Notes under the pieces: model-generated
Database searches by the model: none
What the model saw: only the letters and a program-made list of their open reading frames with translations
What the model was told of the DNA's origin: nothing
Program-made: the position numbers and the translations under genes
Assembly: GCA_002256025.1 (NCBI GenBank)
Contig: NKIB01000285.1
Coordinates: forward strand, 1-33,861
Source: Asterionella formosa
Taxonomy: Eukaryota
Direction of reading: 5' to 3'
Length of the DNA: 33,861 bases
Shown here: positions 1 through 33,522 of the stretch, piece by piece
Numbering within the stretch: position 1 is the stretch's first letter
Layout: each line of letters starts with the position of its first letter

Positions 1-85
1 ACCGTACTGTATTACAGTAGTGCATCACTACTAGTACATACATCACAGTACCACGTAGTACAGAACTATGTATGTCACACAAACA
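1..85 (-). repeat. 3' LTR (partial)
   Basis: 1-77 identical to 6476-6552; 78-85 cacaaaca vs 6553-6560 gactaaca (2 mismatches); begins TGTT on the element strand directly after the PPT. Confidence 0.93.
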
Positions 86-102
86 CCCCCCCCCCCTCGC
101 TC
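86..102 (-). promoter_or_regulatory. Polypurine tract (plus-strand primer site)
   Basis: Element strand reads GAGCGA followed by G11, immediately before the TG of the 3' LTR. Confidence 0.9.
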
Positions 103-1985
103 AAAAGGCTGTTTTGAGGGAAGAATCAAGTGGGACAGAGGAGACATAAGTTGGACCAAGGCGGCCAGTGATAGTATCAAGATGGCGGGCAAACAGGATA
201 CCTCCAGTTTGCTTTGTAATGGCATCAGCAGCGTTGAATCCTGAGGGAACATCCTCCAGAGCAACAAGATCACGTTCAACCCAATCAGTTAGGGCATAAT
301 GACGAATGTCAATGTGCCGTGACTGTTTAGTAGGTTGGCCGGCATGAGCCATCAAAAGGGCACCACGGTTGTCCTCATAGAGGAGGGTAGCATATGTCTG
401 GGGAACATGAAGTTCATCTAGCTAAGATGGAGCGAAGGTAGAGGGCCATTTTCCCAGCATCACTTGCAGCAAGAAATTCAGCTTCAGTGGAACTGAGGGA
501 GACTGTGGGTTGAACACGACATTTCCAGGCAATTGCAGCACCAGCAAGTTTGAAGACAATCCCTGATATGGAACGACGGTGATGGATATCCATAGCCCAG
601 TCAGAATCAACATACCCAAAGACAGCAAATGGAGAGTAATGCGCAGTGGCAGCAGAAACATCATGGAGGAGATGTTGATCATTTGGACGGGTAAGTAAAG
701 GAGGAGGAGATACAAAAGGGAGAGTGGAGTGGGGTGCAGTACGCCAATAGGTGAGACCATGGTCAATCGTACCAGAAAGGTAACGGAAGACCCGCTTAAC
801 AGCAGTGTAATATAAAGCTGAAGGACTGGTTGAAAACTGACTGAGTTTGACCACTGGAAAACTGATTTCAGGGCGACAAGTGATCATAGCCCAGATAAGC
901 TCCCCAATAGCACCACGATATCGGAAATGGGCTTTCTCTAAGGCATGACATTCGGTCTCAGTGGTAGGAGCAGTAGCAGTGTCAAGGGTGCGGATATATT
1001 CATTATCAGCAGGCATGGGCAAATGTGTGGGTTTCATATCATCCCAACCATGATTAGAAAGAAGTTTGCGGATATAAGAACCACAGTGTACAGTGATGAA
1101 GGTGCGAGTTTGAACAATGTCAAGACCATTATAGTGTGTCAAGAGTCCTTGGCGTTTCATGGGTACAAGAAGGTTTGTGTCAAGAGAGTTGCAAATTTGA
1201 GTGTAAAGCTGTTCATTGTTAGTGGCAATGGCGAAATCATCCACTTGGCGAAGAAATAGGACATTTTCTTTGTTGATAGTGGCACAATAAATGCAGGGAG
1301 CATGGACAGTAGGAATAAACTGGTAAGTTTGAAGGATATTATCAATGTGACGAGACCACTGACGAGGGGCTTCAGGGTGACCTTGGAGATTCTTGAGAAT
1401 GGGAATGACAAAATCTGCTGGAATGGGGGAACGCCCTTTGCTGGCCCACCAATCACGAAAGTGAACATCAACTCGCATAAAATATTGTTGTTCAGGAGCA
1501 GCAGCTTCAGCAAAAGCATTAGAAACATCAGCTCCATAGATTAACTTGTTTTCAAGAGTAGCAAGGGCAAAGAAGAGGCGAAGATCGGTCATATCAGGGG
1601 TGGGAGCATAAGTGGGTCCATGGATTTGTGCTTGGCCACCACGAGTAGAACCATCACAAACAGCTCTTGCCTTTTTACGATATTTATCTTCATCCTTAAC
1701 CTTGTAGATCCAAACCCAATGGAAGATTGCAGCACCAGGAGGAGGAGCAACAGGGGAACCAAACATGTCTTGCTTATCATATTGATCAAGCTGCTCAAAT
1801 TCGGAGGCAAGCCAATCGGACCAGTCAGATTGTTTTTGAAGTCCTTGTCTAGTAAGACGACAGGCAAGGGCACCAGAAGGAGTAGAAGAGGATTGACGAA
1901 GACTGTGAGTGATCGTGCGCAAGTCACGAAGTTGATCAAAGTAGAGTTGAGGAAGTCCAGAAGAAGAGAGAGAGTTCCGAAAATT
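101..1985 (-). pseudogene. pol: Copia reverse transcriptase + RNase H (frameshifted near 420)
   Basis: WIYKVK..KKARAVCDGS, GADVSNAF, LKNLQG, RQVDDF, GYVDSDWA..RRSISG, SLSSTEAEF; continues after a 4-bp insertion as LLYEDNRGA..SRHIDIRHY..AADAITK. Confidence 0.95.
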
Positions 1986-2290
1986 CATCAAAAGTAAAGC
2001 AGATGGTGCAGGTGGTGGCGTTATGGTGACGAAGTGTTTGAATGACTTGTTTAAAGTCAGAAAGATTGTCAATCGAAACATCATTGATGTAGAGAATGTA
2101 GGCAAGGCGAAGGCGGGATCTCCATCTACTGATGCGAGCAGCAGGTGTACCAGAAAGACAGGCCAGGAGACGAAGGCGACCACGAAGAGAATCAAATTGA
2201 AGGTGTAGACCAGCAGTTTCATGGGTTCCAGTGATTGGTATGGTTTCAACAAAGGACGGACCAAAGGGATTTCCAGATAATTCAATAGAC
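1985..2290 (-). other. PDZ-like domain within pol, between integrase and RT
   Basis: ORF 1936..2415: GLHLQF..RLRLLACLSGTPAA..LRLAYILYINDVSI..DFKQVIQTL..CTICF resembles the PDZ pattern Gxxh..hh.V.PGSPAA..L.xGDxIhxINg..v....h..h. Confidence 0.6.
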
Positions 2291-2559
2291 ATGACTTCAG
2301 GAGCAGTAAGGGATGCTGCTGCAGCAGCAAGAGGTGGACCACATTCAACAGATGGGGTAATGCTGCCTGTTGGAAGATGGGGATCTATAGGAGTTGTGGC
2401 AGGGCTGGACAACACGGCGAAATCATACTGGCATAATTCACCAAAGGGAAGAGGAAGTTGGCATGCAAGAGGAGAAGAGAAACGAGAGGGAAGGCCATGG
2501 TGCAGAGTTTTTCAACAGATAGGTGGAGGAATGTTCACTACTATCAGCAGCAGGAGTAG

Positions 2560-3688
2560 ACACCAATGTAGGTATCATGGCAGGATGGGAAGTATGTAAA
2601 CCAAGGTCAAAAAGAAATTGCGGACCAGGGGGTCGATGGGAGGAGGTATAATGTGATTCATCAAAGGTGAAACTGCCACCAACTTTAACCCGTCCAGCAG
2701 AATGAACATCAATATACATCACATTTTTGGTGGACCCTTCATAACCAAGGAATATACCATCATAAGTGTGACGATCCAATTTTGCAGGGCGATCACCAGG
2801 AATACGAGTTGTTAAAAGAGATCCAAAAACACGCAAGTGGGAAAGATCAGGCTTATGTCCGTTCCACAATTCAAAGGGTGTACAAGCAAGAGCAGAATGC
2901 CACAGACGGTTCTTGAGATGCACAGCATGGACAAGGGCTGCACTCCAATATTTGGGTGGTAGGCCAGAAGAATAAAGAAGTGAGTGCACCATGACACCAA
3001 AAGTGCCATTGAGACGTTCAACTTTGCCATTTTGATGAGGACTGTCACTACCAGTAGGTTCCATGATATATCCTGCATGAGCAGTGACATCTCGTAAGGC
3101 GGCAGAGCGCCAAAGCTCACCTCCTTGATCAAGGCGGAGAGCACGGTAACCAGTTGGAAGACCATTCTGGAGCAAGAAGGTTTTAACAAGGTCAATGGGT
3201 GGGGCCTTGCTGGTAGTGAGAAAAATCCAAGTGAATCGAGTTTTGGCATCCGTAATGAGGAGATAGGAATTGTATCCATCATAGGAGTCAACAACACGTG
3301 ATGCACCAGGTGTCTTATGAAAAATGAACCCAAAATCGAAATGAAAACGAGAACCAGGGAGGAGGTGATCGACAGGGGATATGGGGCCCATGGGATTCCT
3401 CCGGGCACGGGCATCACTGCAGATTTTGCAATGGTGTAGTGGATGAACTTGGTGATGTAGGCCATGAGGAAGACCAGTGGCACACTGTTGTAAATGGCGA
3501 AGCTGATGCATGCCAGGATGACCAAGTCGTTGATGCCAGAGTTCAGTGGAAAGCAAAGGTGACAATCTGCTGGCATGAGGTGTGATTGTCAATTGTTTGA
3601 AGTAGAAGAGATTGTTTGTGAGAGTCAAGGGCGCATCAGAAAAATGATCATCAGAGGATCTGAAGAAGCGTACAAATGCACTGTCCAT
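2560..3688 (-). pseudogene. pol: Copia integrase (HHCC zinc finger and DD35E core)
   Basis: LWHQRLGHPG...CKIC; HFDFG; LRLDQGGE; SPHQNGKVERLN; WNGHKPDLSHLRVFGS; GIFLGY; frameshift at about 2500-2560. Confidence 0.95.
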
Positions 3689-4357
3689 ATTGTGGCAGTG
3701 TATTTCAAAACCAGAGAAGTTGTTGTAAGATTGTGAGCAAATATGTTGTGGGGAAATCAGAGTCTCAGAGAGTTGTGGGCATCAATACATCATAATTTCT
3801 GCAGTAGTTCCATTAGTGAAAAACAGGGAGAAGAAACCAAAGCCAGGGCAGAGCATACCAGAGACAGAAGCGTCCGCACCTAAGAGGTCAAAAGGTTTGT
3901 CTAAAGGGGTATAGTGGTGGAGAAGGGAGAGATTGGCAGTAGCACAAATATTGGCCCCAATATCACATTGCTCACCCACAGCTGCATGAGGATGTTGTAA
4001 TGGGGTATTTACAGAAAGATCATTAAGACGAGCAGTATGGACAATAGGAAGGAGATCAGGAAAAGGAGCTGAATGGAGAAGTTGGGGGGGGAAGTGGGGG
4101 TGCACAGTCCAGATGGAGATGAAGGTTGTCAGGAAGAGTAACAGCCCTAGTAGGACATAGAAGTTGTGTGGTGTGGGGAGAAGCAACAAGAGGAGAAGAG
4201 GTCGTAGGAGCCAGTGGAGTAACCAAGAGCGGGAGATCACATGAAGAAGCCGGAGGTATTGGCGGTGACAACAGAGCATTGGGCTCTCCGACAGTTGTCC
4301 CGCCATCCCGAGGAAGCCGTTCATCATTCTGGGGATGGTAAAATGACCGGCTTAGAG
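3689..4357 (-). pseudogene. pol: pol N-terminus with aspartic protease
   Basis: QCDIGANICAT (D-[STI]-G-A motif) ... ETLISPQ; in-frame TGA at 3782-3784; frame change at the G8 run 4084-4091. Confidence 0.8.
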
Positions 4358-4364
4358 AAAATCC
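4303..4364 (-). promoter_or_regulatory. Candidate -1 programmed ribosomal frameshift signal (gag/pol)
   Basis: G GAT TTT heptamer at 4364-4358 just before the gag TAA; 6-nt spacer; stem-loop whose loop CCATCCC can pair with downstream GGGATGG; -1 frame is open to 4056. Confidence 0.6.
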
Positions 4365-5754
4365 ACTTCGTAAATGACATTGTCCAGTGTGAGATTAAGA
4401 TCAGAGACTGGAATATCAGGTTGAAGATGGTGTAAGTGATGTGCCATAGCACGCCGGTGAGTGGTGCTGTGAAGCTCTTTCCATGTAGCAGCAGCCCGAT
4501 CAGCATGGTCTTGATGAGAGGAGATATATTGGTGGACAAGGTAATGCTTGGCAAGGGTTGAGCACCGAGTGGCAGAGTGTCCCCAAGTGCCACATGCATC
4601 ACATTGAAGCTCCTCACGTTGGCGGAAGGGGTGATGAGGAGGCCTACTAGTAGATGAAGTGGGAGGTCCAGAGGAAGGAGGGCGGGAAGGATGATGCCGG
4701 AGACGGTGTGCAAAGGGAATCAAGGGAGTGTCATGATGAAAAGAACCTTAGAAAGTTCACCCTGCCGATAAGCTAGGATTGCTGCTGCAAATTTCACTGG
4801 ATCAACAGAATCAGAATAGCGAGGGAGTGGTGCAAGAGCTGATGAAGTAGTGTCAGCAGCATGGGCAAGGAGAGCATGTAAGAAGTAGTATGCAGCAAGC
4901 TTGCTATCAGAATGGGTGACATGCTCTAGGTAAAGGAGGCGAATAATTTCATTTTTCATGTCAAGGGCAGTGGAGCTTTGTAGTTTGAGAAGTAAGAGGC
5001 TACCCATTTCAAAGACAATAGGTGTGGGAAGATTTTGGGGCCAAAGAGCATGACCCTTTTGGAATTGGCAAAGAGGACAGAGATCAATCTGGGTGGCAGT
5101 AGCTTGTTGACAAAGTTTCCTATACCAGTCATGGATGTCAGCAGGAGCAGTAGAGGCAAGGGTAGGTAGGTCAATTGAGAGGAAAGATTTTTTATCGATA
5201 TTGATGGCAGTGGTGATACTAGTGGATTTCCAAAGGGGATGTGGACTCAACGGAGCAGTGGCAGCACCAGTACCAGAACGTCGCTCAAGATCCTTGGTGT
5301 CAGCCTGAAGAATAGCATCATGGTATGAATGGGAATATAGAGGAGGAGATGGTAAGCCAGGTGGGGAAAGGGTTGAACCAAGGTTGGCATGAGGAGTGTT
5401 ACTTGGAGGTTCAAGAAGGACGGCAGCAGGAGGAGAGTTTTGTAGAGCAGGAGGAGAGAGGAACAAAGCAAATGCATCACTATCAAACTCATGAATCCAG
5501 TCAAAGTTGTTGCTGCCACCAGTGTCAGAAGACTGTGCAAACCACATAACTAGTCCCATGATGGTGTCACTGTCAAGCCAATCCCACAGGGGGTCAGCGA
5601 CAAGAGAAGGGGGAAGAAGAGAGGTATCAGTGTCATCACCATGATGGATACGCCGCAATGCACGTTGGAATTTAGAAAGAGTGAGGCGGGGATGATTGGT
5701 CATAAAGACTGCAATGGAGTCGGGAGCTAGGCCTGCTTGAAATAAGATGTCCAT
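4352..5754 (-). pseudogene. gag: gag (broken into two frames near 4720-4745) with CCHC zinc knuckle
   Basis: ORFs 4720..5754 and 4352..4723; CDACGTWGHSATRC = CX2CX4HX4C; lies between PBS and pol. Confidence 0.85.
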
Positions 5755-6356
5755 AACAGATCCAGGAATGTAGGAGGGAGGGGAAGAGCTGGCCTTTTTT
5801 TTTTAAAGAAATGAATTGAAGAAGAAGTTGGAGAGACAGACAGACCGAGAAATGGGGGATGGAAGGACAGACCACAGAGGAGACCGAAAAAAAGGATGGA
5901 AGGACAGACCTTTAAAAGATAACACAGCCAAACAAAAGAAGAAAAAAAATGGTATCCACACCCAGGAAAAGGGAACAGAGAAGCAGACAGAACGTGCGAA
6001 TTTCGTGACAGATGGTTGTGTCACAGGAGCAAACAGGATGGTATGGGCTGATACGGAGATGGCTGGCGGCCTCTTTTGTGAAGGAAGACAAAAAAGATGA
6101 CAGGAATGTGCTGAAAAGAAGGGCAAGGAAGGAGAGAAGTAGAGGGGGGTGGTGGTAGTCCAGAACTTCAAGGAATGGGAAAGGCTGTGTGGCCGGAAAA
6201 GCACGTAGAAGTAATGCAAGACACAGAAGATGCGTTTTTGTACTGTGTAGACAGAATTTCAAAGCAGAAGCGAAGAAGAAGTGGGTTGAACGACACCTCA
6301 CAGTGGCTACGGAAGAGAAACAAGAAGAGGAGTTGAGGGGTCAGGCAACTGCAAAA

Positions 6357-6368
6357 GGGCTCATAACC
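6357..6368 (-). promoter_or_regulatory. Primer binding site complementary to the anticodon arm of initiator tRNA-Met
   Basis: Element strand GGTTATGAGCCC directly after the LTR terminal CA; complement GGGCUCAUAACC contains the CAU anticodon loop. Confidence 0.85.
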
Positions 6369-6560
6369 TGTCAATGCAATATCAAAAGATGAAATGCAAA
6401 ATTATAATACTACTCAGGATATTCTTCTACGATAGGAATGTAGGTAGATGTAGTGTAGATGCATATCAAGTACATACCGTACTGTATTACAGTAGTGCAT
6501 CACTACTAGTACATACATCACAGTACCACGTAGTACAGAACTATGTATGTCAGACTAACA
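6369..6560 (-). repeat. 5' LTR, 192 bp, TGT...ACA termini
   Basis: Bounded by the PBS on one side and by the end of homology with 1-85 on the other; flank aacct (6561-6565) is the candidate TSD, its partner lies outside the window. Confidence 0.9.
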
Positions 6561-6655: not shown

Positions 6656-8290
6656 GTTGTAAATGGCTTTGAGCCACATTATTATATTGTTTTCCGACTA
6701 ATTCTAGAAGTATGCTAAAATCGATCCCCTCTTAGCCCTTTGGCACGATATTTGTTAGTTCATTGAACTACATAAGAATTAGATCATTTCTTTACTTGAA
6801 CATATATTCACTGAAATCTATCCATTTTAAAAGTACCAAAAACGGTCGAAGTGGCTCAAAGCCATTGATTAAAATTTTGCCATACAAGTACTTATTTATA
6901 TAGCCAACGGTTAGAAAATATTATATCGTTTGCATGTTTTTTGCAGTTGTTGCATCGTTTTTAGACTGATGGTGTTCTTGTTGGTTCTATCTCCTCGCAT
7001 TTTTCGCAGTAGTTGTTGCATCATTCTTAGACTTGTGGTCCTCCCAAAGGGTGCTGAGGAAGTGGCGCTGTTTCAGCAGTTGCAACTGGTACTGCAGCAT
7101 CGCCACGCATCATTGTGTCATGGAATCTAGTAACTAGTAGTTTATTTGATGTTGGTAATAGAAGATCCTCGCCTGCTCGCTTTTATCACATCGCCATTGT
7201 TTTCATTTGTGTTACTGTCCACTCAGCTGGCTGTTTTTTAAGCGATCGGATTGCATAATCCTTGTTTGCAAGAACCATGTGTGCGTATATTTTCCGATTC
7301 TCTCGCTCAATCTACACTTCTTCTGCATGCCTCTTCTTCTTTAGCTGGTCATAGAACACTTCAGGCAGCAAGTACCTGCCTGCAGCGACATGAAGACCGG
7401 CTGTGTATCGTTTATTGCTTGAAATCGCCTCTAGTGCTGTTTCTTTTCGTTGGCAGGCAAGTTTGTCCAGATGTATTCCGTTTCTAGCATCCTCAAGATT
7501 GCTATACTGTACGATCTGATCCACAAGAGTTGCAGTGATGCCTTGGCTCAAGTTTAGCCCAGATGGGGGAATAGAAGAGACGGGTTGATTATTGTTTGTT
7601 TCTGATTGCAGATTTGAGGTACTTGCCAGTTGAATTTCTGGATGGAGTAACAAGTTGTTGTTCAATGGGACCCAACCTTTTTCAGCAACAACGATATGGG
7701 CAAAGGATTCATCCCATGCTTTCAACACCAGGTCAACAATACCTTTCTTTTCAACAGCACATGCAGTATGGCGCCTTTCCTTTAGGGTGAGTAAGTCTCT
7801 CTTGCATTTCGTGATTTGGATCTTTAAACTTGATTTTACAGTCAGGGTAGAAATTGATGAACTATGTCCTGCTAACAACTGTGAATCATTTATTGTCATA
7901 GTAGCATATAATTGCACTAATGAATTAGTTGCCTTTCCCGCCTGATTTAGCTTCTACAGATGGTACTGAACTAAAGTTAGTGTTTGCCAAGCCAGTGTAC
8001 TAGCCGCAATTGATGCAACAATATTCGATATTGCACCATATAGTAGTGTGACATTGTTATTTGCCTTTCAAAGTTTCTAATTCCATTACCATGTATTTTT
8101 TAAATAATTGACACTACAGTCTTATCCAAAGAAATAGGTAGTATCACCTTGTACTTTTTTGGATGGTTGAGGCTGCTTTCTTGCTGTCATAGGTTTGATC
8201 GTTGTTAATGAGATGACTGCGATTTGCCTCAATTTTTGGTTTGTTGTAAGAGATTTCTGCTGTGCATTACGGTCTCTGACATGAAAATAA
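6656..8290 (-). mobile_element. pogo-like DNA transposon derivative, copy A (internally deleted)
   Basis: ORF 7312..7917 has KCKRDLL..IVDLVLKAWDESFA..KGWVPLNNNLLLHPEI, resembling the C-terminal part of pogo/DDE_1 transposases; homologous in inverted orientation to 31965-33522; terminal 22 bp identical between copies. Confidence 0.75.
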
Positions 8291-12258: not shown

Positions 12259-14731
12259 ATGACGCTCCAAGAGCGAAGTGCGACGAAAAGAATTGAGGCC
12301 GCAGGAACACCATCAAAAAATATTTTTAAAAACGAGCCTTCCAGGGGACTGAATGTAACGCCTCTAAGGAATTATTTCACTCGCAAGTCATCGAAACAAG
12401 TCCGCACCAATGATGTAAGTTACCTTATTAGTAAACATGGAGGGCATCTTGGTAGATCAAACTCCATGCATTCGGGTTTGGTCACAATCACATTCAAATC
12501 ATTACTCTCACAAACTTTAGCTGCCTTTCGAGGACGGAGCGGTCGGGGCCGTTTCCCTTTGGGGGTTCATTTATTGCTGCATCTCTTTGACTGTTCCACT
12601 TGCATATATTTATATTTTGCTGATACTGTTGAGAGAGCTCTGTATGTACTTTCCTCAATCTATTTACGCAGGGATCAAATCCTATTTGCCATGGTTGGCA
12701 ACCGTGGTGGCTACAATGGCACAGTCTTCATTGCTTGTCGAAATCTGGTGCGTCGTTGAAGCAATATTTTTCGTCGGACTTAAGCTTCAAATTAGATATT
12801 TGCAACGAAAAGATCCTCTTGAAGCAAGCCTCAGTTCGGCACCGATGATGGAGTTGGTAGATCGACAAATCCTATGGGGACGGATGATGGCATCAGAATC
12901 CAAGGACCCCGTTGAATTTATCTCTGGCTGGTTTTTTGACGAGCCATTGGAAAAGATCAGCAAATATGATGTTCGAGACTTTGTAGCTTGGAGCATGTTT
13001 GAAGGGCGAAATCAAGAGCATTTGACAGGGGAGGAACTACAACAAGTAGACGAATTTGTGGAAGACTTTGAATATCGACTCAGTGTTCATTTGCACGGTC
13101 TATTGAAAGAAGATGGAATGGACGAGAAAGAGAATATTAATGCCAACCCAGAACTAAATTTATCTAGAAGCACACAAAACGATATCGATTGGAAGGAATT
13201 GGCAGTAATGAATCGACCCCTGCCTAAGGAAATCTTTCGATTTCACGAGAGTACAACTGACGAGCAGCCCAATTTTTTCTCAAACCTTTATGAAAATTAC
13301 AAACAGCACTATGAGCAATATCGAAGCATGCTCGAGAATGCTGATTTTCATCCTGTGCAAGACTTTCGAAATTTTATGGCGGAAGCAGAAGAGAATGCAT
13401 TGGCAACAGCCAGCCAAATGTACGAAAACGCGTATCACAGCTTGATTACACCAGGTTCCAGCATGGATAAGCAGTTGGCTGCATTGTCTCATGCGACGCA
13501 AGTACAATTGACTGAAGCATGGAACTCAGTGAAAGGCATGCGAAAACGTCTGGAAACCGCAGAATTTCTATCGACGCAACGAAAGCGACTACGACAGCAG
13601 CTAAAAGGATACCGTGTTTTACTCAATCGAATGAGAAGCATGTCATCTTCTGTTCCATCAAAGCAAATGGCCAACTTAATGCGAAAAATAACAGATTGTA
13701 ATGATGCCATGCAGAATATTGAAAATCGAGCAATGGATGCATTTGCCGAAGCCACTGGATATGCTCGCAAAAGCTTGATGCCGACTCAGGAACCTCAACA
13801 CTACGCAAAATACTCCTCTGATCCATTATTGGGGGTTGTAACATATCCCTTGGGTTTACATTTATTTATTTTGGGGGCTACTGAAATCCCTCTTCGTATC
13901 CTGATGCACCGGCGCAGTTTCACGCGCCTGGTAGTTGGAAAAGTCGCCTATTATTTTAACCCAGGGCAACAACACGATGATGACAATGATGAGGAAAAAA
14001 TACCTATTGTGTTTGTTCATGGTATTGGTATCGGACTCATTGCCTATATACCTTTAATTGACCAGATGCTCCAGTCTGGGCGACCAATGCTTCTTCCAGA
14101 AATACCATATGTTTCAGGATTTCGTCCCTTTCAATCTCCCAACTCCGTCTTATCTCCTGCGGTTGTTTCCAGCACCATGACGGACATGCTCGCAACACAT
14201 GGTTACTTGAGAGGGACATTTGTGGGCCATTCATATGGAAGTGTTTGGTTGTCATACATGCTGAAGTATGCACCAAATGCGATTGGTGCTGTCATTTTTC
14301 TTGACCCCATTTGCTTCTGTTTGCATGTTCCTCGATTGACAAAACAGTTTGTCTATCATCGGCCTGATCCTGGTACTGCCTCTTTCATGGTTCGAACTGA
14401 TGTGATCATCAACTGGACTATTCAACGCAGTTTCCCCTGGTCATGGATTGTCCTCTTTCATGAGCAGATCCACGTTCCCTGCAGTATCTTCTTAAGTGAA
14501 CGAGACATGCTGGTTCCTGCAACTAAGGTTGAAGCATACTTTCAGTCAAAAGGTGCCCCTATCAAGGATTTCTCCGATGTGACACGGAATCACTTTGAAG
14601 ATTGTGCAACAAATGTGACAGTTTTTCGAGGTGATGGCCATGGGGGTTGGTGTGAAAGGCCATTTTCAACAAGTCCAGTAATTGCTGAGTGTGTTGAAGT
14701 GCTTTGTCGCCGTGCTGAACAAGGATCATAG
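12259..14731 (+). CDS. Alpha/beta hydrolase fold protein, 2 exons (12259-12414, 12521-14731), about 788 aa
   Basis: Phase-0 intron 12415-12520 GTAAGT...TTTAG joins ORF 12259 to the long frame; PIVFVHGIGIG, nucleophile elbow GHSYGS, FLDPICF, distal GHGG; N-terminal hydrophobic segments. Confidence 0.88.
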
Positions 14732-19840: not shown

Positions 19841-20842
19841 TAGCATGCCAAAATTGTTCGATCTGAATTGCTATTTATTGTCATGATGTGAGATCACATC
19901 CAACACCACCTCGAAATTGCATGACATTGGCACTGCTAGCTAACTCAAAATCGTACCAGTAGTCAAATGGTGCATTGAGTGTACTATGTATACCGGGTTA
20001 ACCGTACAAATCCATGCACGTTTTCATACACCCATTATGCATTTTTTAATTTGTTGTCGTATTTCGAAATCAAGTATGGCGTACGAACGGATTCTGGATT
20101 CCGTCCTGTGGTACACTCGTGTGTAGAATTTATTGTATGTAGCCTGTTCATATCTCACCTGCATAAATGTCGAAGTGTCCAGTAAAACTGAAATTCAACT
20201 CATCATTTCTTTTGTTTGAACAAGAAGAACCATCCGCAAACCATATTGGCATCGAGCAAAATTATGTCTACATACAGCAACATAGAGATAATGAAGACAT
20301 TGAAATTTCATTTTGGTTTGTTTAAAATGGAACTCTATCAATCTGGCGCCGATTCCTATTTAATTCAAATATTCAAATGGACACTCAAATCATGGGAATT
20401 CATAGAAGCAAACTCCTTGTTCCCTACCGCTTTTACAACCCTAACAGTTTTTTCTGTAAACTACCGGTAGGGCCGGGGCCCCAACTAAATATTGATGTGT
20501 TCGATATATTGATAGATTCATGTGTATGCATATGTAAAACATACATGTATATGTGTATATTACACTACTATTTGTTTTGCTGTGGTACTCATACCAGGTA
20601 CCTGATTGTAGCACAGTGGCATACCGGTAATTGCGTACAAAACGTAGACTCTAACGGTGAGCTCTGTCCTTTATAGAGCCAAATTTGTTTTTTCACTGAC
20701 TGTGACTATCATACTTATACCTCTGTGCATACTGGCATGTACTCTACGCTTCATACGCCTGTGAGCTGATGTCGACCGAGCACATTGCTCAGCGTCGTTT
20801 CTTATTTCAACCATTGCGACAACGATTTCTACAATCGGGGCC

Positions 20843-22924
20843 ATGAACCGGCGCATCGCTAGAGGAACTACCGGTAGCTTGCCGATGCTGCCACAACAAG
20901 TTAATGCTGAGCTGCTGGCTGCTACCAACAGGAAATCTACATGGGCCACAACAGCTTGCAAAGTTTTGTTCATTTTCGCTTTTGGGTTTGCGTGGTATGT
21001 GAGTGACCCACGCAGTTGGGAACTGCAAGTGGACCCTTATCCTCTCAGCACATCGCTTGCGATTACCGGTAGTTCCAAGAACAGGCTTATCAAATCCAAT
21101 GCGATTAGTAGTATTGATTCCATGAGTGAGAGTAGGCGCTCCATGCTGTCCGCCACAACTCTCCTCCCTTCCCTAATACCCCAACCTTTTGCTGACAATC
21201 GCTACGTAGAGAGATCCTTGGACGACTATCATGACCTTTGCGTTGTTGGAGCTGGATTGTCAGGAACTGTAATTGCCGAACGATATGCCAATGTTCGGAA
21301 CCAGACGTCCCTTGTCATTGAACGCAGAGACCATATTGCTGGAAACTGCTATGACTACATAGATGAAGAAACGGGCATTCGAGTTTCCAAGTATGGTGCT
21401 CATTTGTTCCACACGTACTTTGAACGTGTCTGGGATTATGTCCAAAAATTTAGCGATTGGACCAAATATGAGCACGAAGTGGTTGCTCTCGTGGATGGCA
21501 AGCATGTTCCTGTCCCAGTCAATATTGATACTGTCAATTCCTTGTTCGGTCTCAGTATTGACAGTGAGTCAAAAATGGATGAATGGCTCAAGAAAGAGCA
21601 AGTAAAGTTTGACATCCCGAAGAACTCTGAAGAAATGGCCTTGTCTCGAGTTGGTCAGCGTCTATATAGACTTATTTTTCATCCTTACACCATCAAGCAG
21701 TGGGCCAAGGAACCCAAAGAGTTAGGACCAGAAGTGACCGCCCGAATTCCTGTTCGAAACAATCGAGATAGCCGCTACTTTTCAGATCCTCACCAGGCCC
21801 TTCCCAAAAATGGGTACACTGCTATTTTCGAAAAGATGATGGACAACCCTCTCATTACTTTAAAGACTAATACCGACTTTTTCGAAGTTCGGGAGCGCCT
21901 TCGATGTGGAAAAATTTATTACACAGGACCTATCGATCGTTATTTTGCCGATTTGGGATGGAACAAGCTAGAATACCGATCGTTAGATTTTGGTCGCCAA
22001 GTTATCAAGAATATTGATTTCTTCCAGCCAAAGGGTGTGGTCAATCATCCCAATGCAACGACAAACTACACACGTATTGTTGAATACAAGCACTTTTTAA
22101 ATCAAACTTCGGATCATACAATATTGTTCTTCGAATATAGCAAAGATGACGGAGAGCCTTATTACCCAGTGCCTAACCCAGAAAATGAGAATTTGTTCAA
22201 AAAGTACCAGGCGATGGCAGACATGGAGCGCGGTGTAACCTTCGCAGGGCGACTTGCCAATTACAAGTACTTCAACATGGATCAGACTATTGAAAACGCT
22301 TTAAGTTTGTTCGAGAAGGACACCCAGTCGCTGGATTTGATAGTCAGCTATTGTGAAGGGGATGATTTGAACTGGATTAAAGAGTGGCACGTCAAGTTAA
22401 AAATCAGTCATACATACGTTTATGCATCATGCGAGGCGCCTTCTGTTGAAGCTGACCAAATCGCGAAAGCATTTACACGCGCTCTCAATATGAAAACTGC
22501 CATCGCCAGTGGTGCGCAAGGCAATGAAGATTCAAAAGAAGGCTTACACGATTCAATCCCGTTTGAAAAAGCCAACAAAATAATGAAGGACGGTATCCAA
22601 CCTGTTGTCGATCATGGAAGTGCCGACTCAATCACTCTTCACTTTTTGCGAAAAGATATTGAATTTGGCTCACAGTCAGTCTTCGTACAGGGAAATACGA
22701 AGATGACTGCTGAAATTGTACAAAACTCTGTGAAGGAAATTGAGGAATGGACAGTCTTCATCGACTTCGCCAAGCTCCCCTTCAAGGGTTGCGAAACCAG
22801 CAAGTGTGATCGCAATTTCAATCCAGAGGTTGGCAGTGACTTTTATGTTACACAAGAGGCAATAAAACGGTATTTGAGTGTCAACCTTGAAGAATTAAGG
22901 AGACGTGGGGCGGCACAGGAGTAG
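20843..22924 (+). CDS. glf: UDP-galactopyranose mutase (prokaryotic-type) with N-terminal membrane anchor and C-terminal DUF3431-like domain, 693 aa, intronless
   Basis: VVGAGLSG, IERRDHIAGNCYD, YGAHLFHT, YTIKQW, RIPVR, YTGPID, LEYRSL, YTRIVEYKHF, EPYYPVP, GRLANYKYFNMDQ. Confidence 0.93.
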   Translation: MNRRIARGTTGSLPMLPQQVNAELLAATNRKSTWATTACKVLFIFAFGFAWYVSDPRSWELQVDPYPLSTSLAITGSSKNRLIKSNAISSIDSMSESRRSMLSATTLLPSLIPQPFADNRYVERSLDDYHDLCVVGAGLSGTVIAERYANVRNQTSLVIERRDHIAGNCYDYIDEETGIRVSKYGAHLFHTYFERVWDYVQKFSDWTKYEHEVVALVDGKHVPVPVNIDTVNSLFGLSIDSESKMDEWLKKEQVKFDIPKNSEEMALSRVGQRLYRLIFHPYTIKQWAKEPKELGPEVTARIPVRNNRDSRYFSDPHQALPKNGYTAIFEKMMDNPLITLKTNTDFFEVRERLRCGKIYYTGPIDRYFADLGWNKLEYRSLDFGRQVIKNIDFFQPKGVVNHPNATTNYTRIVEYKHFLNQTSDHTILFFEYSKDDGEPYYPVPNPENENLFKKYQAMADMERGVTFAGRLANYKYFNMDQTIENALSLFEKDTQSLDLIVSYCEGDDLNWIKEWHVKLKISHTYVYASCEAPSVEADQIAKAFTRALNMKTAIASGAQGNEDSKEGLHDSIPFEKANKIMKDGIQPVVDHGSADSITLHFLRKDIEFGSQSVFVQGNTKMTAEIVQNSVKEIEEWTVFIDFAKLPFKGCETSKCDRNFNPEVGSDFYVTQEAIKRYLSVNLEELRRRGAAQE

Positions 22925-23111: not shown

Positions 23112-26100
23112 TTAACCTGATTCATGAACGCTTTCCCAATATCTCGAATCATTGCCGGCGTCAGAATGATACCGGCGAGATCGTGCCTGAGTTGTCCCTA
23201 TCTGTTGCTTCTCCATCTCGAGCATACGTGAACGAAGCGTTCGGATTTCGCTTTCTTTCTCATCAATGATTGATGATAAGCGAACTTTTAGCTGTACGAT
23301 TTCGTCATTGCGGTCCTCGAAGCCTTTCTTCGCCCTTGCTGAAATCATTGCTGTAAGATCTTCGGCTTGAAACCTTCGAGTCTGCTCTGCCTTGAAGACT
23401 TCCATTGACACCCAGTTGTCAACATCCGAAGCAGATGCGCGTTGCGCTCTAAGGTGCTCGTTCTCCTTTTCGAGGAGTCGAATCCTGTGAGCTCCTAAAC
23501 TCAACTCAGCAGGGTACGATGCATCTGGGTCGTCAGCAAAGCGACCCCTGTAAGCATAGCCTCCACTGGACCGTTCTTCCATATCTTGTAAAACTTGAAA
23601 ATTACTTAAACGCCCAGATTTCGTTCGGGCATTGTTGACCATATCCAACTCGCGCTTCATCGAATCAATCGACGATTCTAGTTGTCCCAACTTCTTAGAA
23701 ACATCACTATTCTCAACCTCAACTGTGACCCTATTCGCTTCCAGTTCTTCGATTTGTTCACGAAGAGTCACTGAGCTTCTCTCAGCTCTTTCCTGATCTA
23801 CTTTGCATCGCTCAAGGTTTTCTGTCAATTTCTGTTTTGTGTCTTCGCACACCTTCAAGTCATTTACAGCTGTCGCTAGTGTGGATTCCATGGATCGCTT
23901 CTCCTCTACAATTCTGGCAACTTGCTCTCTGGTGTCTCTTTGAAATTTCTCGACAGTCTCTTTCATTGTTGTCATGTGTTTCATCGCTTGATTTCGCTCA
24001 ATCGTCATGCTCCTCAGCATTGACTGAAGTCGCTTTATCTCAGCGTTAAGAAGGTCACTTGTATTATCAGCATTCATTACAACGTCGTCTCGAGCTTTCT
24101 GGGAAGATTCCAGTTCCAGCTGAAGTCGGTTGACTTGGTCGCGCTCACGTCGGAGCTCATTGGATAGTGACAACTTCTCTTGCTTCGCCAAGTTGTCAGT
24201 TAGAACATGCTCCGTTTTCGTATCAACAAGGTGCTGCTGAGATAGAATTAACTCCTGGCTGAGCTTAGCAATCTCAATATTCAATCGTTTTAACTCTTCG
24301 TCGTTCACCTCATTGCTTTGTAGTGACAACGATTGCTGCTTCGATACAATCACCTTCATTTCATGGCAAGCATTCTTCCAGTGTCTGATTTCCTTGACTG
24401 TGGAGTCCAATTTACCCTTCAGTTCGACAATTTGAGCGTTCTCAGATTTAAGTCCTGTAATAATGTTTCTCTCACTTGTTAGCCTTTCCAACAATGTAAC
24501 CTGTTCCACAGTCAGAATTTCCACCTGATTGGCTAACTCAGCAATGGTAACATCACAATTTGAGTGGTCCAACGCTAACTCCGTCGCTTTCTTTTCGGAT
24601 GCTATCAGATCGGTCATTAATTGCTGATACGACTCTGTTAGTCTTTCGACTTCATCGTCCCTTTGTCGTAGTTGTTGTTCAGTAACTGAAAGCTCCTCCA
24701 TTTTCAATTTAAGCTCTCGTTCCATTCCAAGCTGTGACATAACTGCTTCTTCCGCGATCTTCTCGACAGAGCTGCGCTCAATAATTGTCAGATCTAGAAT
24801 TGAGTTCATGTTTGCCATTTCTTTCTCGTACTTTTTTTGTAAGCGGTGATATTCGTCGGTCCGTCTGGTTAGTTCCTTGTTTGCTTCTTCCGCATGATGT
24901 TCCGCAGATAAACGGGCTGCCAAAGCCTCGTCAAATCGTTTTTGTTGTGTATCTTGGAACGCTTGAAGGCGCTCAAGAGAGGTTGCACTCGATTCCCAAA
25001 GCCCGTTCTGCATTCTCTTAACTTCATCAACTGTCCCCTGCAAATTGTGGATTTCACTAAAAAAAGGAGTGCTGTCGATGGTTTCAGTCAATGGGCGTTT
25101 ATTCTCACCTGTTCCATCAATGCTGCTCATTTGTGACCTGTGCACTGAGGTGATTGACTCAGTTTCTGCGCCCACTGTATTGAAGGACTTCAAAGGAGAT
25201 TGCGATACTGAAGAATGCGCAAAGCTTCTAACAGGAATCGAAACGTCGTGTGCCTTTTCACAACTCCAGGGTCTGCTATCAGGCTGTTTGGAACGAGGAG
25301 GCTGAAAATCGATGTCTACGTATCTGTACCCGGCAAGTGCAGGTCCATCGCAATTACCTTCGTCATTTTGAGGAACAAGTCTTTCAAGGACAAGATTTCC
25401 TGGGTCTACCGCTCCATCTCTATCCATCGGGAAGCGGATATATTCCTGGTCCAAGTTGTCAAAATCCCGCTCCAATAAGTCTTCTTCCAACCATTCACCG
25501 AGAAGGGCCTCGTTGTCCACGTTTTGTTCCAGGTAGAATGTTGAATCATCAGGAGTTATAAGTGGAATCAAGCAGTCGCTGTGAGTATTATTCGTTGCCA
25601 TATCTGTAGTCTGGATCATTTCATGCTTTTGGATTGCCAAGTTCGGTTCACCGAGAAAACCAGGAAATTCTGGTTGTTTTTGGTATGGGTTCTCCTTCCT
25701 GGATTCCCACAATATTTGTTCGTTGTGAGGTGAAAAATCTGGAGACTCGATTTGGATATCAAATCTTTCGGTTTCTACACTTTCGCTGCATGCGTATTCA
25801 ACGTCATCCGCAAAAACCGTTCCATTTTCGCTAGCATTTACCTGAGCCACTCTATTACTTTCTCCAATAATCGCGGGCGTCTCAGTTTGCACAAATGAGA
25901 TGTCGCCGGGATCAATCGCCATATAATCTGTTGGCTGATAGCTCTCCTCCAAATGCAACCTTTTTGGTGTTACCCGAGGTTTTGCTGGTGACTTGCTTAA
26001 AAGCTTGGCCAAGCGCTGGCGAGGATCGGAAGTAACGCTCTTCATCAAACCCTCATCGGTACCACGTTGATCTATCAAAAGTTCTACAGGTGACGACTTG

Positions 26101-27731
26101 ATTGAATCTGGGGTTATTCGATCAAATGGAGACTGAGCTGTCGTTCCGGGTCGAATGAGCAATCTGTTGACATAGTCAAGTGTATGCAAAGTTCGCTCAT
26201 ACGCCAAAGCCTGAGCAGAAACAGAAGCGAGAAATACAGTTTGAGTGCCTTCCTCTGACAAGACACGCTGGAGGATCTTGGTTAGCGTGCACTCTCGGAA
26301 TGAAACAGAATGGCTCTCACTATTTATCTCTTGCAAAATAAGACTGCGCAGGACGCCACGCAAGAAAGATAGTGACTTGCGAGCCGACGCCATGCGTTTT
26401 CGCACCGTTGAACCCATTCCAGGAGAATCGTGGCCATTGCATAATTCAACAAATTGAAGGGTGACGCACTTGGTCGCATGATCCAAGTCCCTTTGAACTG
26501 CATTCTCCCAAATCTTGAATGTACATATTATGTGTCCACGAGGCCCTTCTCGTTTCCGAATGCGTAGAGCGGTTTGCGAATAAAAGGCCTTTCGGAGGAG
26601 GTGATCTAGTCCCATCAAAGAATCAACAGGAGAATCAACTAGATTCTGGAGTAATGCCCCACGATGATCGAGATGACGAATTTTGAGTTTAGACTGAGAG
26701 TCGATCGAATCGAGGCTAAGCATATCACGAATAGTCTCCTCGTCGGCAATTTCAAGAAACGAGATTGTGCAAACCGCGTCGTCGGGGAGGACTTTCAAAA
26801 TGTTATTAAATGTCATACCCAATATTCCAAGGGATTCAGGTGATCGGCTCAATGAAGGAGATTCCTCCAATCTTGGCTTGCCTCCTGATCCAAAGAGAGA
26901 GGTCCCCTTCAGGTTTCCCAAAGCGAAACAAACAACGTTTCGATGCCTTAGGGTCGCATCGTTTGAGAAACTCTCGGCCAGCCTTCCAATGGATCCCGCT
27001 TCTTCCGATCCACGAGACCAGACTACTTCGTCGAAGCGATACTTGCGCGCCCAGTCTTCAGATTCAATGTTGGCCTAGTTTCAGCGTGTCAGCCAACGTG
27101 GGGTAGTAGCAGGAATACTAGGTGCCAAAGAAGCAGCACAGATACTACGTACCACTTGAGCAACCAGCCGAGCAGTTTCCATTGTAAACTGTGCTGGAAT
27201 GTGTTTACCAAAAGCAGAAGGATTGACAACGACCAATTCTCTTGTCGATTCTTTGACCGCTTGCTGGATCGTCGCAGATATCGGACTCAAAAGATCCTCA
27301 GGGTTGGAAGGTGATGCAATAACTAAAGGGAATAGACACAATTTGCTCGATTTCGGGGCGTTTTCGTTGTTTTCTGGAACATTAACAGTGATAACGACAG
27401 ATACCTTTCGGCAAGAAATCAGGGATAGATTCGCATCGGTATTAAAAGCACATGAAGCCATAGCATCCACTTTCCCCTTTTCTGATTTCATGAGAGGTGA
27501 GAACGGTGACATTGGCCCACGATTCTGCCGTTCAAACGGCGGCAACTTGGTAGTTTTCACTGCGTTCTGAGGCGATCGTGAGATTGAAAGTCTTTGTTGA
27601 CCGACACTTTCAGATATCGACAGAGTAGGCCCATCGAGGACTTCTGCTGAGTCCAAGAGATCCTCTTTACTGCTATCAGAAGAGTCTGATCCAACAACCT
27701 CTGACAAGTAAAACGACAATTCAGTTTCCAT
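23112..27731 (-). CDS. Kinesin-like protein with divergent motor domain and long coiled coil, 2 exons (27731-27153, 27074-23112), about 1513 aa
   Basis: Phase-0 intron 27152-27075 GTACGT..CTGAC..CTAG; YRFDEV, SFLEIADEETIRDML, KSLSFLRGVL, VSFRECTLTKILQ, TVFLASVS..ERTLHTLDY; heptad-rich C-terminal half. Confidence 0.85.
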
Positions 27732-31913: not shown

Positions 31914-33522
31914 ATGTCAGAGATTGTAATTCACATCAGAAATTGCAGCTGATGCACCACTTCACATGTCAGAGACCATAATTCACATCAGAAATTGCTT
32001 CAGATGCACCACAAAATGAAGCAAATTGCGATCATCACATCAACAAAGATGAAACCTACAGCAAGAAAACAGCCTCAACCATCCAAAAAGTACAAGGAGA
32101 TACCTTATTTTTTGGATAAGACTGAACGTAGTCTCGCTTATTCATTAAATGGAAATAACAATGGCAAACTGCCATACTATGGTGCAATATCAAATATTGT
32201 TGCATCTTACTAGGTGGCTACACTGACTTGGCTAACAAAATCTACTATGGTCCAGTAACATTTGCAGAAGCTACATCAGCCAGGTGGGAAAGGCAACTAA
32301 TTCACTAGTGCAATTACCTGCTATGACAATAAATAATTCCCAGTTGTTGGCAGGACATTCCTCATCAATTTCTACCCTGACTGCAAATTCGAGTATTAAT
32401 ACTCCACTCCTGTATCAACCAGTTGACACATTCATGAGTAGTGGTGGCGCAAATGGTGGTGCATGGGTAGAAATAATGAAGCGAAAGAAAAGGAAGCAAA
32501 TAATGGAGAAAAACTTACCTGTGAAAGGGGAGGGAACTTTGTGAAACTGACAACAATGATGACACCCGGAAGCACCAAAGCCATGTAACGAGAATATGAG
32601 CAACCCTTTGCACAAGCCAATATACAGTATTGCAATCATGAGGATCCTAGTTGGAACATAAACAAATCTGGACAAACTTACCCACCAACGAAAAGAAACA
32701 GCACCATTAAGAGCGATTGAAAGCAATAAACGATACACAGCTGGTATTCATGTTGCTGCAGGCGGGTACTTGTTGGTTGCTGAAGTGGTTGATGACCAGC
32801 TGAAAAGGAAGAGGTATGCGTAAGAAGTGCAAAGTGAGCGAGCGAGTAAGAAACATTTGCATACAAAGCGCTTGCAAACAAGGTTTATGCAATCAGAACG
32901 CTAAACAAACGCCATTAGAGTGGACAGTGGCGCAAATGAAAACAATGGCGATGCGGTACAAGCAAGCTGACAATATTCCACTACCAACTACAATGAAGCA
33001 ACTTCTACTTACCAGATATCATGGCCACATGATTCATGTCAACGCTGCAGTATTAGTTGCAACTGTAATGCCGCCACTTACTCACCCTTCAGTCGCTCTT
33101 ATTTCACGACAAGATATGATGGGAGGACCACCAGTCTAAGAATGATGCAACAACTACAGTGAAAAAACGTGCGAGGAGTCTTTGATTGAACTGATAAGAT
33201 ATGATGGGAGCATCACCATTCTTAGAGCCATGCAACTACTGCTCAAAAAATGGAAACTATATAATATTTTCTAACCATTGCCTATAAAAATAAGTACATG
33301 TAGTTTTAATCAAAGGCTTTGAGCCACTTCTACCGTTTTTGTTACTTTTAAAATGGATAGATCTCAGTTATTATATGTTCAATTATAAAAATGATTTAAA
33401 TTTCATGTAGCTTAATGAACTAACTAATATCATGCCAAAGGGCGAAAGAGGAGATCGATTTTAGCATATATCTAGAATTAGTCGGAAAACGATAAAAAAA
33501 GTGGCTCAAAGCCATTTACAAC
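31914..33522 (+). mobile_element. pogo-like DNA transposon derivative, copy B
   Basis: Inverted homology with 6656-8290 (e.g. KPTARKQPQPSKK, SQLLAGHSSSISTLT, SNKRYTAG.HVAAG); tandem duplication of about 50 bp at 31914-32012; ends gtggctcaaagccatttacaac. Confidence 0.78.

Follow-up and report, generated by a model that had tools for sequence, protein, structure and literature searches.

The gag stop codon of a Ty1/copia LTR retrotransposon in Asterionella formosa, which lies just past a slippery heptamer, raises the question of whether the break between gag and pol is a lesion of a decaying element or the site of a programmed -1 ribosomal frameshift. The element is encoded on the minus strand of the window, the whole 33,861-nt stretch of contig NKIB01000285.1 that was analysed, and it was compared with further copies in the same genome and with related loci from metagenomes. 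From this comparison we infer, at a probability of roughly 85%, that the clade to which the element belongs makes Gag-Pol by programmed -1 ribosomal frameshifting.

The element and its gag-pol junction

The element spans positions 1-6560 and was recognised by its domains, its LTRs, a PBS-like motif and a polypurine tract, all on the minus strand. The 5' LTR of about 192 bp (6369-6560) runs from TG at 6560 to CA at 6370-6369, its inner end being tentatively placed from the PBS-like motif that directly follows this CA (6357-6368) and that we take to resemble the half-tRNA-Met primer site of Drosophila copia. The 3' LTR (1-85), a direct repeat of the 5' LTR that is cut by the contig end, is 98% alike to it over the 85 nt that remain, and the polypurine tract lies at 86-99. 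Gag (4352-5802) occupies two frames (4720-5802 and 4352-4747), is broken near 4745, ends in YEVDFL and aligns with the gag of the metagenomic relatives L043, L046 and L047; at 4745/4746, RNA-library contigs from two runs have 169 letters more than the window. Its CCHC zinc knuckle (Cx2Cx4Hx4C, 4562-4603) is conserved in the Gag alignment. The protease region (3782-4085), with the catalytic Asp codon at 3964-3962 (QCDIGAN) and an in-frame TGA at 3784-3782, is out of phase with the -1 frame that follows gag. Behind it lie the integrase region (GAG-pre-integrase, core and SH3; 2438-3781; Pfam PF13976 and PF25597) and, in two frames (414-2384 and 101-421), reverse transcriptase and RNase H (101-2384; Pfam RVT_2, PF07727, E 7e-19), the tail ORF (101-421) resembling by eye the C-terminus of the intact 1,387-aa Pol protein P0003. 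The copia domain order PR-IN-RT-RH with a copia-type RT is found by Pfam in the window, L043 and L046. With breaks in gag, in the gag-protease linker and in pol, the window copy is decayed. Among its homologues only one bears a species name, that of Thalassiosira oceanica; an MMETSP transcript is a further homologue, and stretches nearly identical to the element are present in freshwater and estuary RNA libraries. The element is here called diatom-type copia, a designation that stops short of a CoDi group, since the homology searches returned no named CoDi sequence.

Elsewhere in the window, self-comparison reveals two inverted repeat copies of about 1.6 kb (6679-8283 and 31965-33500; 72-94% identical, 24-27 kb apart), likely another transposon family; an ORF at 7312-7953 has no Pfam match. 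The plus strand encodes a UDP-galactopyranose mutase that is extended N-terminally by about 160 residues (20765-22924; Pfam GLF, E 4.5e-67) and an ORF of 736 aa bearing a hydrolase-like G-H-S-Y-G motif (12521-14731), and the minus strand a 1,320-aa kinesin-like ORF with coiled coil (23112-27074), the latter two assigned by eye and having no Pfam match at E 0.001.

On the element strand gag ends GTG GAT TTT CTC TAA. The heptamer G_GAU_UUU (4358-4364), shared with L003-L005, L043 and L045-L047, is in phase with the gag codons and is followed by a 6-nt spacer (4352-4357) that contains the stop TAA (4354-4352). Heptamer, stop, spacer, stem, loop and the GGGATGG complement of the loop all lie where the original prediction had placed them. 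The -1 frame, which it described as open for about 100 codons towards the protease, is indeed open for 102 (4056-4364; ORF and peptide matches), yet it stops at 4056-4058, some 30 codons before the protease Asp at 3964, so that this evidence was incomplete in a copy broken downstream. The overlap between the -1 frame and gag is 43 nt in the window and in L002. Behind the TAA, the protease is encoded in the 0 frame, which has no stop for 189 codons, and the window copy taken by itself is therefore ambiguous between -1 shifting, readthrough and decay. In a C-run near 4086, however, a one-base indel distinguishes the window from RNA-library contigs of two runs, and the N-termini of P0003 and of L045 are matched by the -1 peptide of the window rather than by its 0-frame one, which together mark the 0-phase protease of the window as a later lesion.

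Related copies and the downstream RNA structure

A DNA search of the same genome returned 14 matches to the element. Family A comprises five junction-covering copies in this genome, the window included, four of which carry GGATTTT and one (L002) GGAGTTT, and the near stop is kept in three (window, L002, L003). Family B, about 67% identical to family A, reads A AAT TTT CTC TAG on seven of seven same-genome contigs; it has AAA where family A has GGA, a replacement after which the heptamer is predicted to be still slippery. A pattern search of the same genome hit seven places, all in families A and B, against none in the control. In L002, L009, L010 and L013 the -1 frame that starts at the heptamer reaches the protease uninterrupted, and it is lost within 13-86 codons in the other six of the ten same-genome copies besides that of the window; the overlap is 16 nt in L009, L013 and L003. 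In L008 pol stands in 0 phase behind a TAG, and we read the 0-phase pol or protease of L008 and the window as the outcome of later indels. The gag stop is found 3 nt past the heptamer in the window, L002, L003, family B, L043 and L046 and 15 nt past it in L047, and is gone in L004, L005 and L045. In one family-B copy, L012 (G000:C12475), the region from stop to hairpin is tandemly duplicated (about 81 nt).

Of 221 stretches picked up by a scan of metagenomes, 152 were confirmed, and the loci described here were taken from the best 80 of these 152. Among these best 80, six loci are closest to the element, and the junction is visible in five of them (L042, L043, L045, L046 and L047). At all five junctions pol is in the -1 frame and the heptamer is in phase (GGATTTT in four, AAATTTT in L042), and the -1 frames are open for 362, 1392, 365, 1323 and 391 codons, respectively, those of L043 (1,392 codons) and L046 (1,323 codons) being uninterrupted pol frames. 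The overlaps measure 16 nt in L042, 34 nt in L043, 16 nt in L046 and 61 nt in L047, and 346 nt in L045, where the near stop is lost. As a background, the pol frames of five relatives contain 16 in-phase slippery-like heptamers in 7,419 codons (0.0022 per codon). Averaged over five lineages, identity is 0.89 within the heptamer and 0.33 in the preceding 30 nt, and four U follow the A of the heptamer in every lineage. The earlier proposal that the break is programmed rather than decayed is borne out by these relatives, all five of which combine a -1 pol with a conserved slippery heptamer ahead of it and a 3' structure. In the alignment of copies that it had called for, the in-phase heptamer and the -1 phase recur in intact relatives and the near stop in most, and L043 and L046 have clean -1 junctions rather than a single ORF or a junction lacking the heptamer. 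A scan of viral contigs for the cassette pattern gave 34 pattern matches, none of them confirmed, and a scan of prokaryote genomes gave one distant match (28%) only.

In the sub-lineage formed by L005 and L045, TAC replaces the gag stop while heptamer and hairpin are retained; in L045 the 0 frame stays open for 113 codons beyond the heptamer, beside the -1 frame of 365 codons.

The protein ends of Gag carry a related signal. A knuckle is present in 71 of 158 Gag-like proteins and a tail of 55 residues or more in 66, and the 29 that score at least 100 bits are treated as close homologues. D-F or N-F occurs within the last nine residues in 25 of these 29, against a background of 3%, a count that includes the two query Gags and that depends on predicted termini which contig ends can cut; the other four are one G-F, one +1-frame peptide of family A and two with other ends. 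D-F is also found near the Gag end in outer clades with an in-frame stop, so the protein-level signal is partly one of peptide conservation. Of 16 such dicodons in those clades just one reads G GAT TTT, which argues against a heptamer that merely follows from the peptide, and a purely protein-driven D-F was rejected on this count.

The window has a bulged stem-loop at 4316-4351 (folds, RNAalifold and pair counts), with a 4-bp lower stem, a 3-nt bulge in the 3' arm, an 8-bp upper stem and a 9-nt loop; the 5' arm lies at 4351-4340, the loop at 4339-4331 and the 3' arm at 4330-4316, with the bulge GAA at 4322-4320. All lineages have such a two-part hairpin about 6 nt past the heptamer, the bulge reading GAA, or ACA in L046, and we take the two-part stem with its purine bulge to resemble the HIV-1 stem-loop. 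Over seven distinct sequences from about five lineages, 94% of the cells of the 12-bp hairpin are paired and four of the 12 pairs have changed on both sides. Only 0-1 of 500 shuffles match these pairing and covariation values, and slid controls pair at 14-59%; since structure and covariation come from one and the same alignment of few lineages, the covariation is to be regarded as good but not strong. The stability of the fold in the window is z +0.47 over 77 nt and z -1.72 over the 50 nt after the heptamer, z-scores are weak in most copies (+1.4 to -2.0) with only L047 reaching -4.07, and one RNA-library contig disrupts a lower-stem pair at 4348, adjoining the bulge. The hairpin is the conserved candidate for the frameshift stimulator. 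Rfam has no match on the cassette at gathering score and two weak matches (E 0.34 and 3.7) elsewhere in 4100-4600. A covariance model run against 43 sources recovered just its six training lineages (next best E 2.3), which indicates that the hairpin is not recognisably common to the UGA clades described below.

The original prediction had gone further and proposed an H-type pseudoknot, in which the loop sequence CCATCCC (4338-4332) pairs with GGGATGG (4303-4309), 6 nt past the stem. The second stem would have 7 bp in the window copy, with loops of 1, 1 and 6 nt. As a feature of the lineage this did not hold up in the relatives, where the best Watson-Crick stem 2 has 3, 3 and 2 bp in L043, L046 and L047. 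Of the retrovirus-style -1 frameshifting that was put forward, the -1 phase, the heptamer and the 3' hairpin are therefore conserved while the pseudoknot is not. A narrower version, by which -1 shifting occurs but the family of the window requires the pseudoknot (CCAUCCC/GGGAUGG) as its stimulator, is unlikely. The 7-bp complement, with a duplex of about -11.4 kcal/mol, is present in the window, L002 and L045 (at a second site), stem 2 has 6 bp in L005 and 4 bp in L003 and L004, and at least UCCC/GGGA is kept in all six family-A copies, as is UUCC/GGAA in all six family-B copies, whose stem 2 has 4-5 bp; in addition, a -1-phase RNA-library contig (3932-4340) appears to keep GGGATGG, none of its seven differences falling in 4303-4309 among those listed. 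These shorter matches have to be set against 4-bp matches in 11-39% of control windows, whereas a 7-bp loop complement occurs in 14 of the 6,270 20-nt windows of the element, the number that one site gives. L003 and L004 read GGGACGG, so that the T of GGGATGG may be a CpG transition, and the G-rich stretch doubles as code for a conserved C/G-G-T/M peptide in the pol frame. The pseudoknot is not the conserved signal of the clade; it may form in family A, where it would be accessory at most.

Production of Pol across the junction

The -1 phase of pol, the in-phase heptamer within a short overlap, its conservation amid diverged flanks and the covariation of the hairpin are observed at this junction, and a ribosomal frameshift would use them as follows. 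Most ribosomes would end at the gag stop just past the slip site and yield Gag. A minority would be delayed by the bulged hairpin that begins 6 nt further on while their tRNAs sit on GAU-UUU (or AAU-UUU), and a tandem -1 slip to GGA-UUU (or AAA-UUU) would carry them into protease, integrase, RT and RNase H. The stop three bases past the heptamer would perhaps also promote slippage. The hairpin would act as stimulator, and the proportion of ribosomes that shift at the site would set the Gag:Pol ratio.

Pol might instead be made without recoding, from a spliced RNA or by internal transcription or initiation, with heptamer and hairpin kept for packaging or for the Gag C-terminus, which is very unlikely here. 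Extracts of two reports on Tca2 describe de novo initiation and weak promoter activity of its junction, and no readthrough, in reporters (PMC2194720; PMC7175516), and in the -1 frames of three of six loci an AUG stands ahead of the protease Asp. In the other three (L013, L042 and L046), however, the first in-frame AUG comes after the catalytic Asp, which disfavours internal initiation. Splicing is disfavoured as well, since no splice joint across the junction is present in the contigs of four RNA runs (X2-X4 cover parts only, and contigs show presence, not absence) and since gag and pol are two separate ORFs on one MMETSP transcript. Moreover, production of Pol without recoding leaves the fixed -1 phase and the slipperiness-preserving change from GGA to AAA unexplained.

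It is still less probable that the break reflects the decay of a single ORF, or in-frame readthrough beside an incidental -1 frame, an explanation that L043, L046 and L047 largely refute. It draws on the 0 frame of the window, open after the TAA into the protease, on the similar state of L008, on related clades that keep an in-frame UGA and on some distant relatives with a single ORF. Yet it is the -1 peptide of the window that agrees with intact Pol N-termini, two long elements combine clean -1 junctions with uninterrupted pol frames, and none of the 29 close Gags continues into protease (the longest tail after the knuckle has 133 aa). Furthermore, the stop varies between TAA and TAG, moves or is lost, unlike a readthrough codon. 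Restoration of the frame in the RNA by polymerase slippage, for which the four U after A in every lineage might be invoked, is scarcely credible, since the U run is short, a structure at ribosome-spacer distance suits translation, and no indel at 4358-4364 is found among the RNA-contig differences listed (rare variants dropped).

Relatives with an in-frame UGA and known systems

While programmed -1 frameshifting is the preferred reading for the clade of the window, its relatives appear to follow another strategy. Of the other 75 loci among the best 80 of 152, 31 were picked for a readable same-frame junction, 11 form an outgroup and 33 remain as truncated, broken or unused. All 31 picked junctions (L048-L070, L077-L086 and L101) have TGA as the one stop that separates gag from pol, with GAA ahead of it in 24, making these loci candidates for UGA readthrough; 17 of the 31 come from one metagenome, three near-duplicate pairs are among them and the contig of L053 starts at the stop. 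Three of the 31 have TGA-CTAG and, behind it, a long hairpin (about 16-18 bp) that differs in sequence among them (L053:1-80, L069:1566-1645 and L084:444-520; z -2.2 to -3.6 versus mononucleotide shuffles). No earlier description of this candidate UGA readthrough in diatom-type copia relatives was found in the literature covered. UGA as a sense codon of a recoded genome was rejected, the pol frames of these clades ending in TAG (7), TGA (3) and TAA (2), all three stops of a standard code. A search of the A. formosa genome with a UGA-clade protein gave at least 15 matches of 33-57% identity, mostly on known contigs, with no close UGA-clade element among those listed. Among the 11 distant copia-like outgroup loci, knuckle and integrase share one ORF in ten, and some distant Gag homologues continue into a protease motif as one ORF.

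Two further features were noted in these relatives. A motif of 12-14 nt that codes for A-E-E-R turns up again and again in L051-L070, 30-90 nt past the gag TGA, often in several copies and with invariant codons; it may act as an RNA signal or reflect a repeat in the peptide. Many outer-clade Pol proteins (P0022-P0120) contain a dUTPase domain (PF00692), which the main text of PMC2806351 does not mention.

In a pol tree of 18 rows and 668 columns (LG+G4, no mixture model), which came with program warnings about long-branch joins and compositional unevenness, the -1 clade has a support of 100/99 and the UGA-CUAG clade is its sister at 99/99, the other UGA lineages lying outside; a first quick tree lacked four short rows (L045, L068, L083 and L085), and conclusions are drawn from the final tree. 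Forcing all ten in-frame-stop rows together, a group named after the first tree, was rejected (p-AU 0.006). With the -1 clade nested within UGA lineages, parsimony makes -1 shifting derived from an in-frame-UGA state, which suggests a switch from UGA readthrough to -1 frameshifting at this junction. Since the sister clade has UGA-CUAG and a long hairpin at the same place, the 3' hairpin may have passed from stimulating readthrough to stimulating frameshifting. We lean slightly towards the fuller scenario, in which -1 shifting evolved independently from a UGA-readthrough ancestor, with the 3' hairpin perhaps handed over and the slip site built on the D-F codons at the end of gag. If true, three gag-pol strategies (single ORF, UGA readthrough and -1 shift) would stand on one diatom-type copia tree, which would also supply natural recoding signals for diatom ribosomes. 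The position of the cassette inside UGA-junction lineages lets the question of a change of recoding mode at constant Gag:Pol ratio be tested, its hairpin would represent a new structured RNA family, and the signals could become recoding tools in diatoms.

Extracts of a study that maps differing gag-pol strategies onto one tree (bioRxiv 2022.12.06.519325) offer a parallel to the UGA relatives: the readthrough context GAA-TGA-CT of the fission-yeast Ty3/gypsy elements Tj1, Tosmo and Tcry1, along with the UGA-CUA type II context (extract of PMC3159437), resembles the GAA-UGA and UGA-CUAG of the sister and outer clades, not the -1 cassette. For the CoDi elements of diatoms, Maumus et al. (2009; PMC2806351) describe gag and pol as separated by a single stop or frameshift or by none at all; their main text gives no frame, slip site, readthrough or mechanism, while the supplement may list frames. 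Such junctions are easily mistaken for decay in surveys of diatom transposons.

Within the copia superfamily (Pseudoviridae), Ty1, Ty2 and Ty4 use a +1 shift, Ty5 has a single ORF, Drosophila copia regulates Gag by splicing, Tca2 has an in-frame UGA and SIRE1 reads through to env (PMC5009743; PMC2194720; PMC7175516). These elements share the superfamily and the need for excess Gag with the present one, and in the extracts of these sources no -1 shift is stated for a copia element. The ICTV profile allows one, two or three ORFs and does not name recoding (PMC8515867), and the relevant parts of PMC5445492, PMC7017206, PMC7082073, PMC3498833 and PMC8147415 contain nothing on recoding. A 2003 survey found -1 frames in 28 of 51 animal retroelements (Gao et al., as summarised in PMC5009743); the summary, in the part available, does not name the superfamilies, so that a copia case may be among those 28. 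No description of -1 frameshifting in a copia element, nor of any gag-pol mechanism for diatom elements, was found in the literature covered, the 2003 survey itself, most subscription papers, Repbase and GyDB lying outside its scope.

Among viruses, the same heptamer G_GAU_UUU occurs in umbraviruses, dianthoviruses, insect flaviviruses and mesoniviruses (PMC5009743, in part), in agreement with the original statement that GGAUUUU is a functional -1 site in some RNA viruses; the likeness is one of motif only, the viruses being unrelated and having other stimulators. In pea enation mosaic virus, an umbravirus with this heptamer, a stop 3 nt past the heptamer matters for shifting (PMC5009743, in part), and the window copy has the same spacing. 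G_GA heptamers and spacers of 5-9 nt are established for -1 sites in general (PMC5009743, in part). Further counterparts are the cassettes of retroviruses and Ty3/gypsy elements (Metaviridae), which are alike in a -1 pol, an X_XXY_YYZ heptamer, a 5-9-nt spacer and a 3' structure (PMC5009743, in part) and which include the -1 gag-pol cassettes of Tf1/sushi elements (bioRxiv 2022.12.06.519325, in part). The present element differs from them in its copia order (PR-IN-RT-RH, RVT_2) and in having no Rfam match, and its conserved -1 cassette would extend the -1 strategy of retroviruses and gypsy elements to the copia superfamily.
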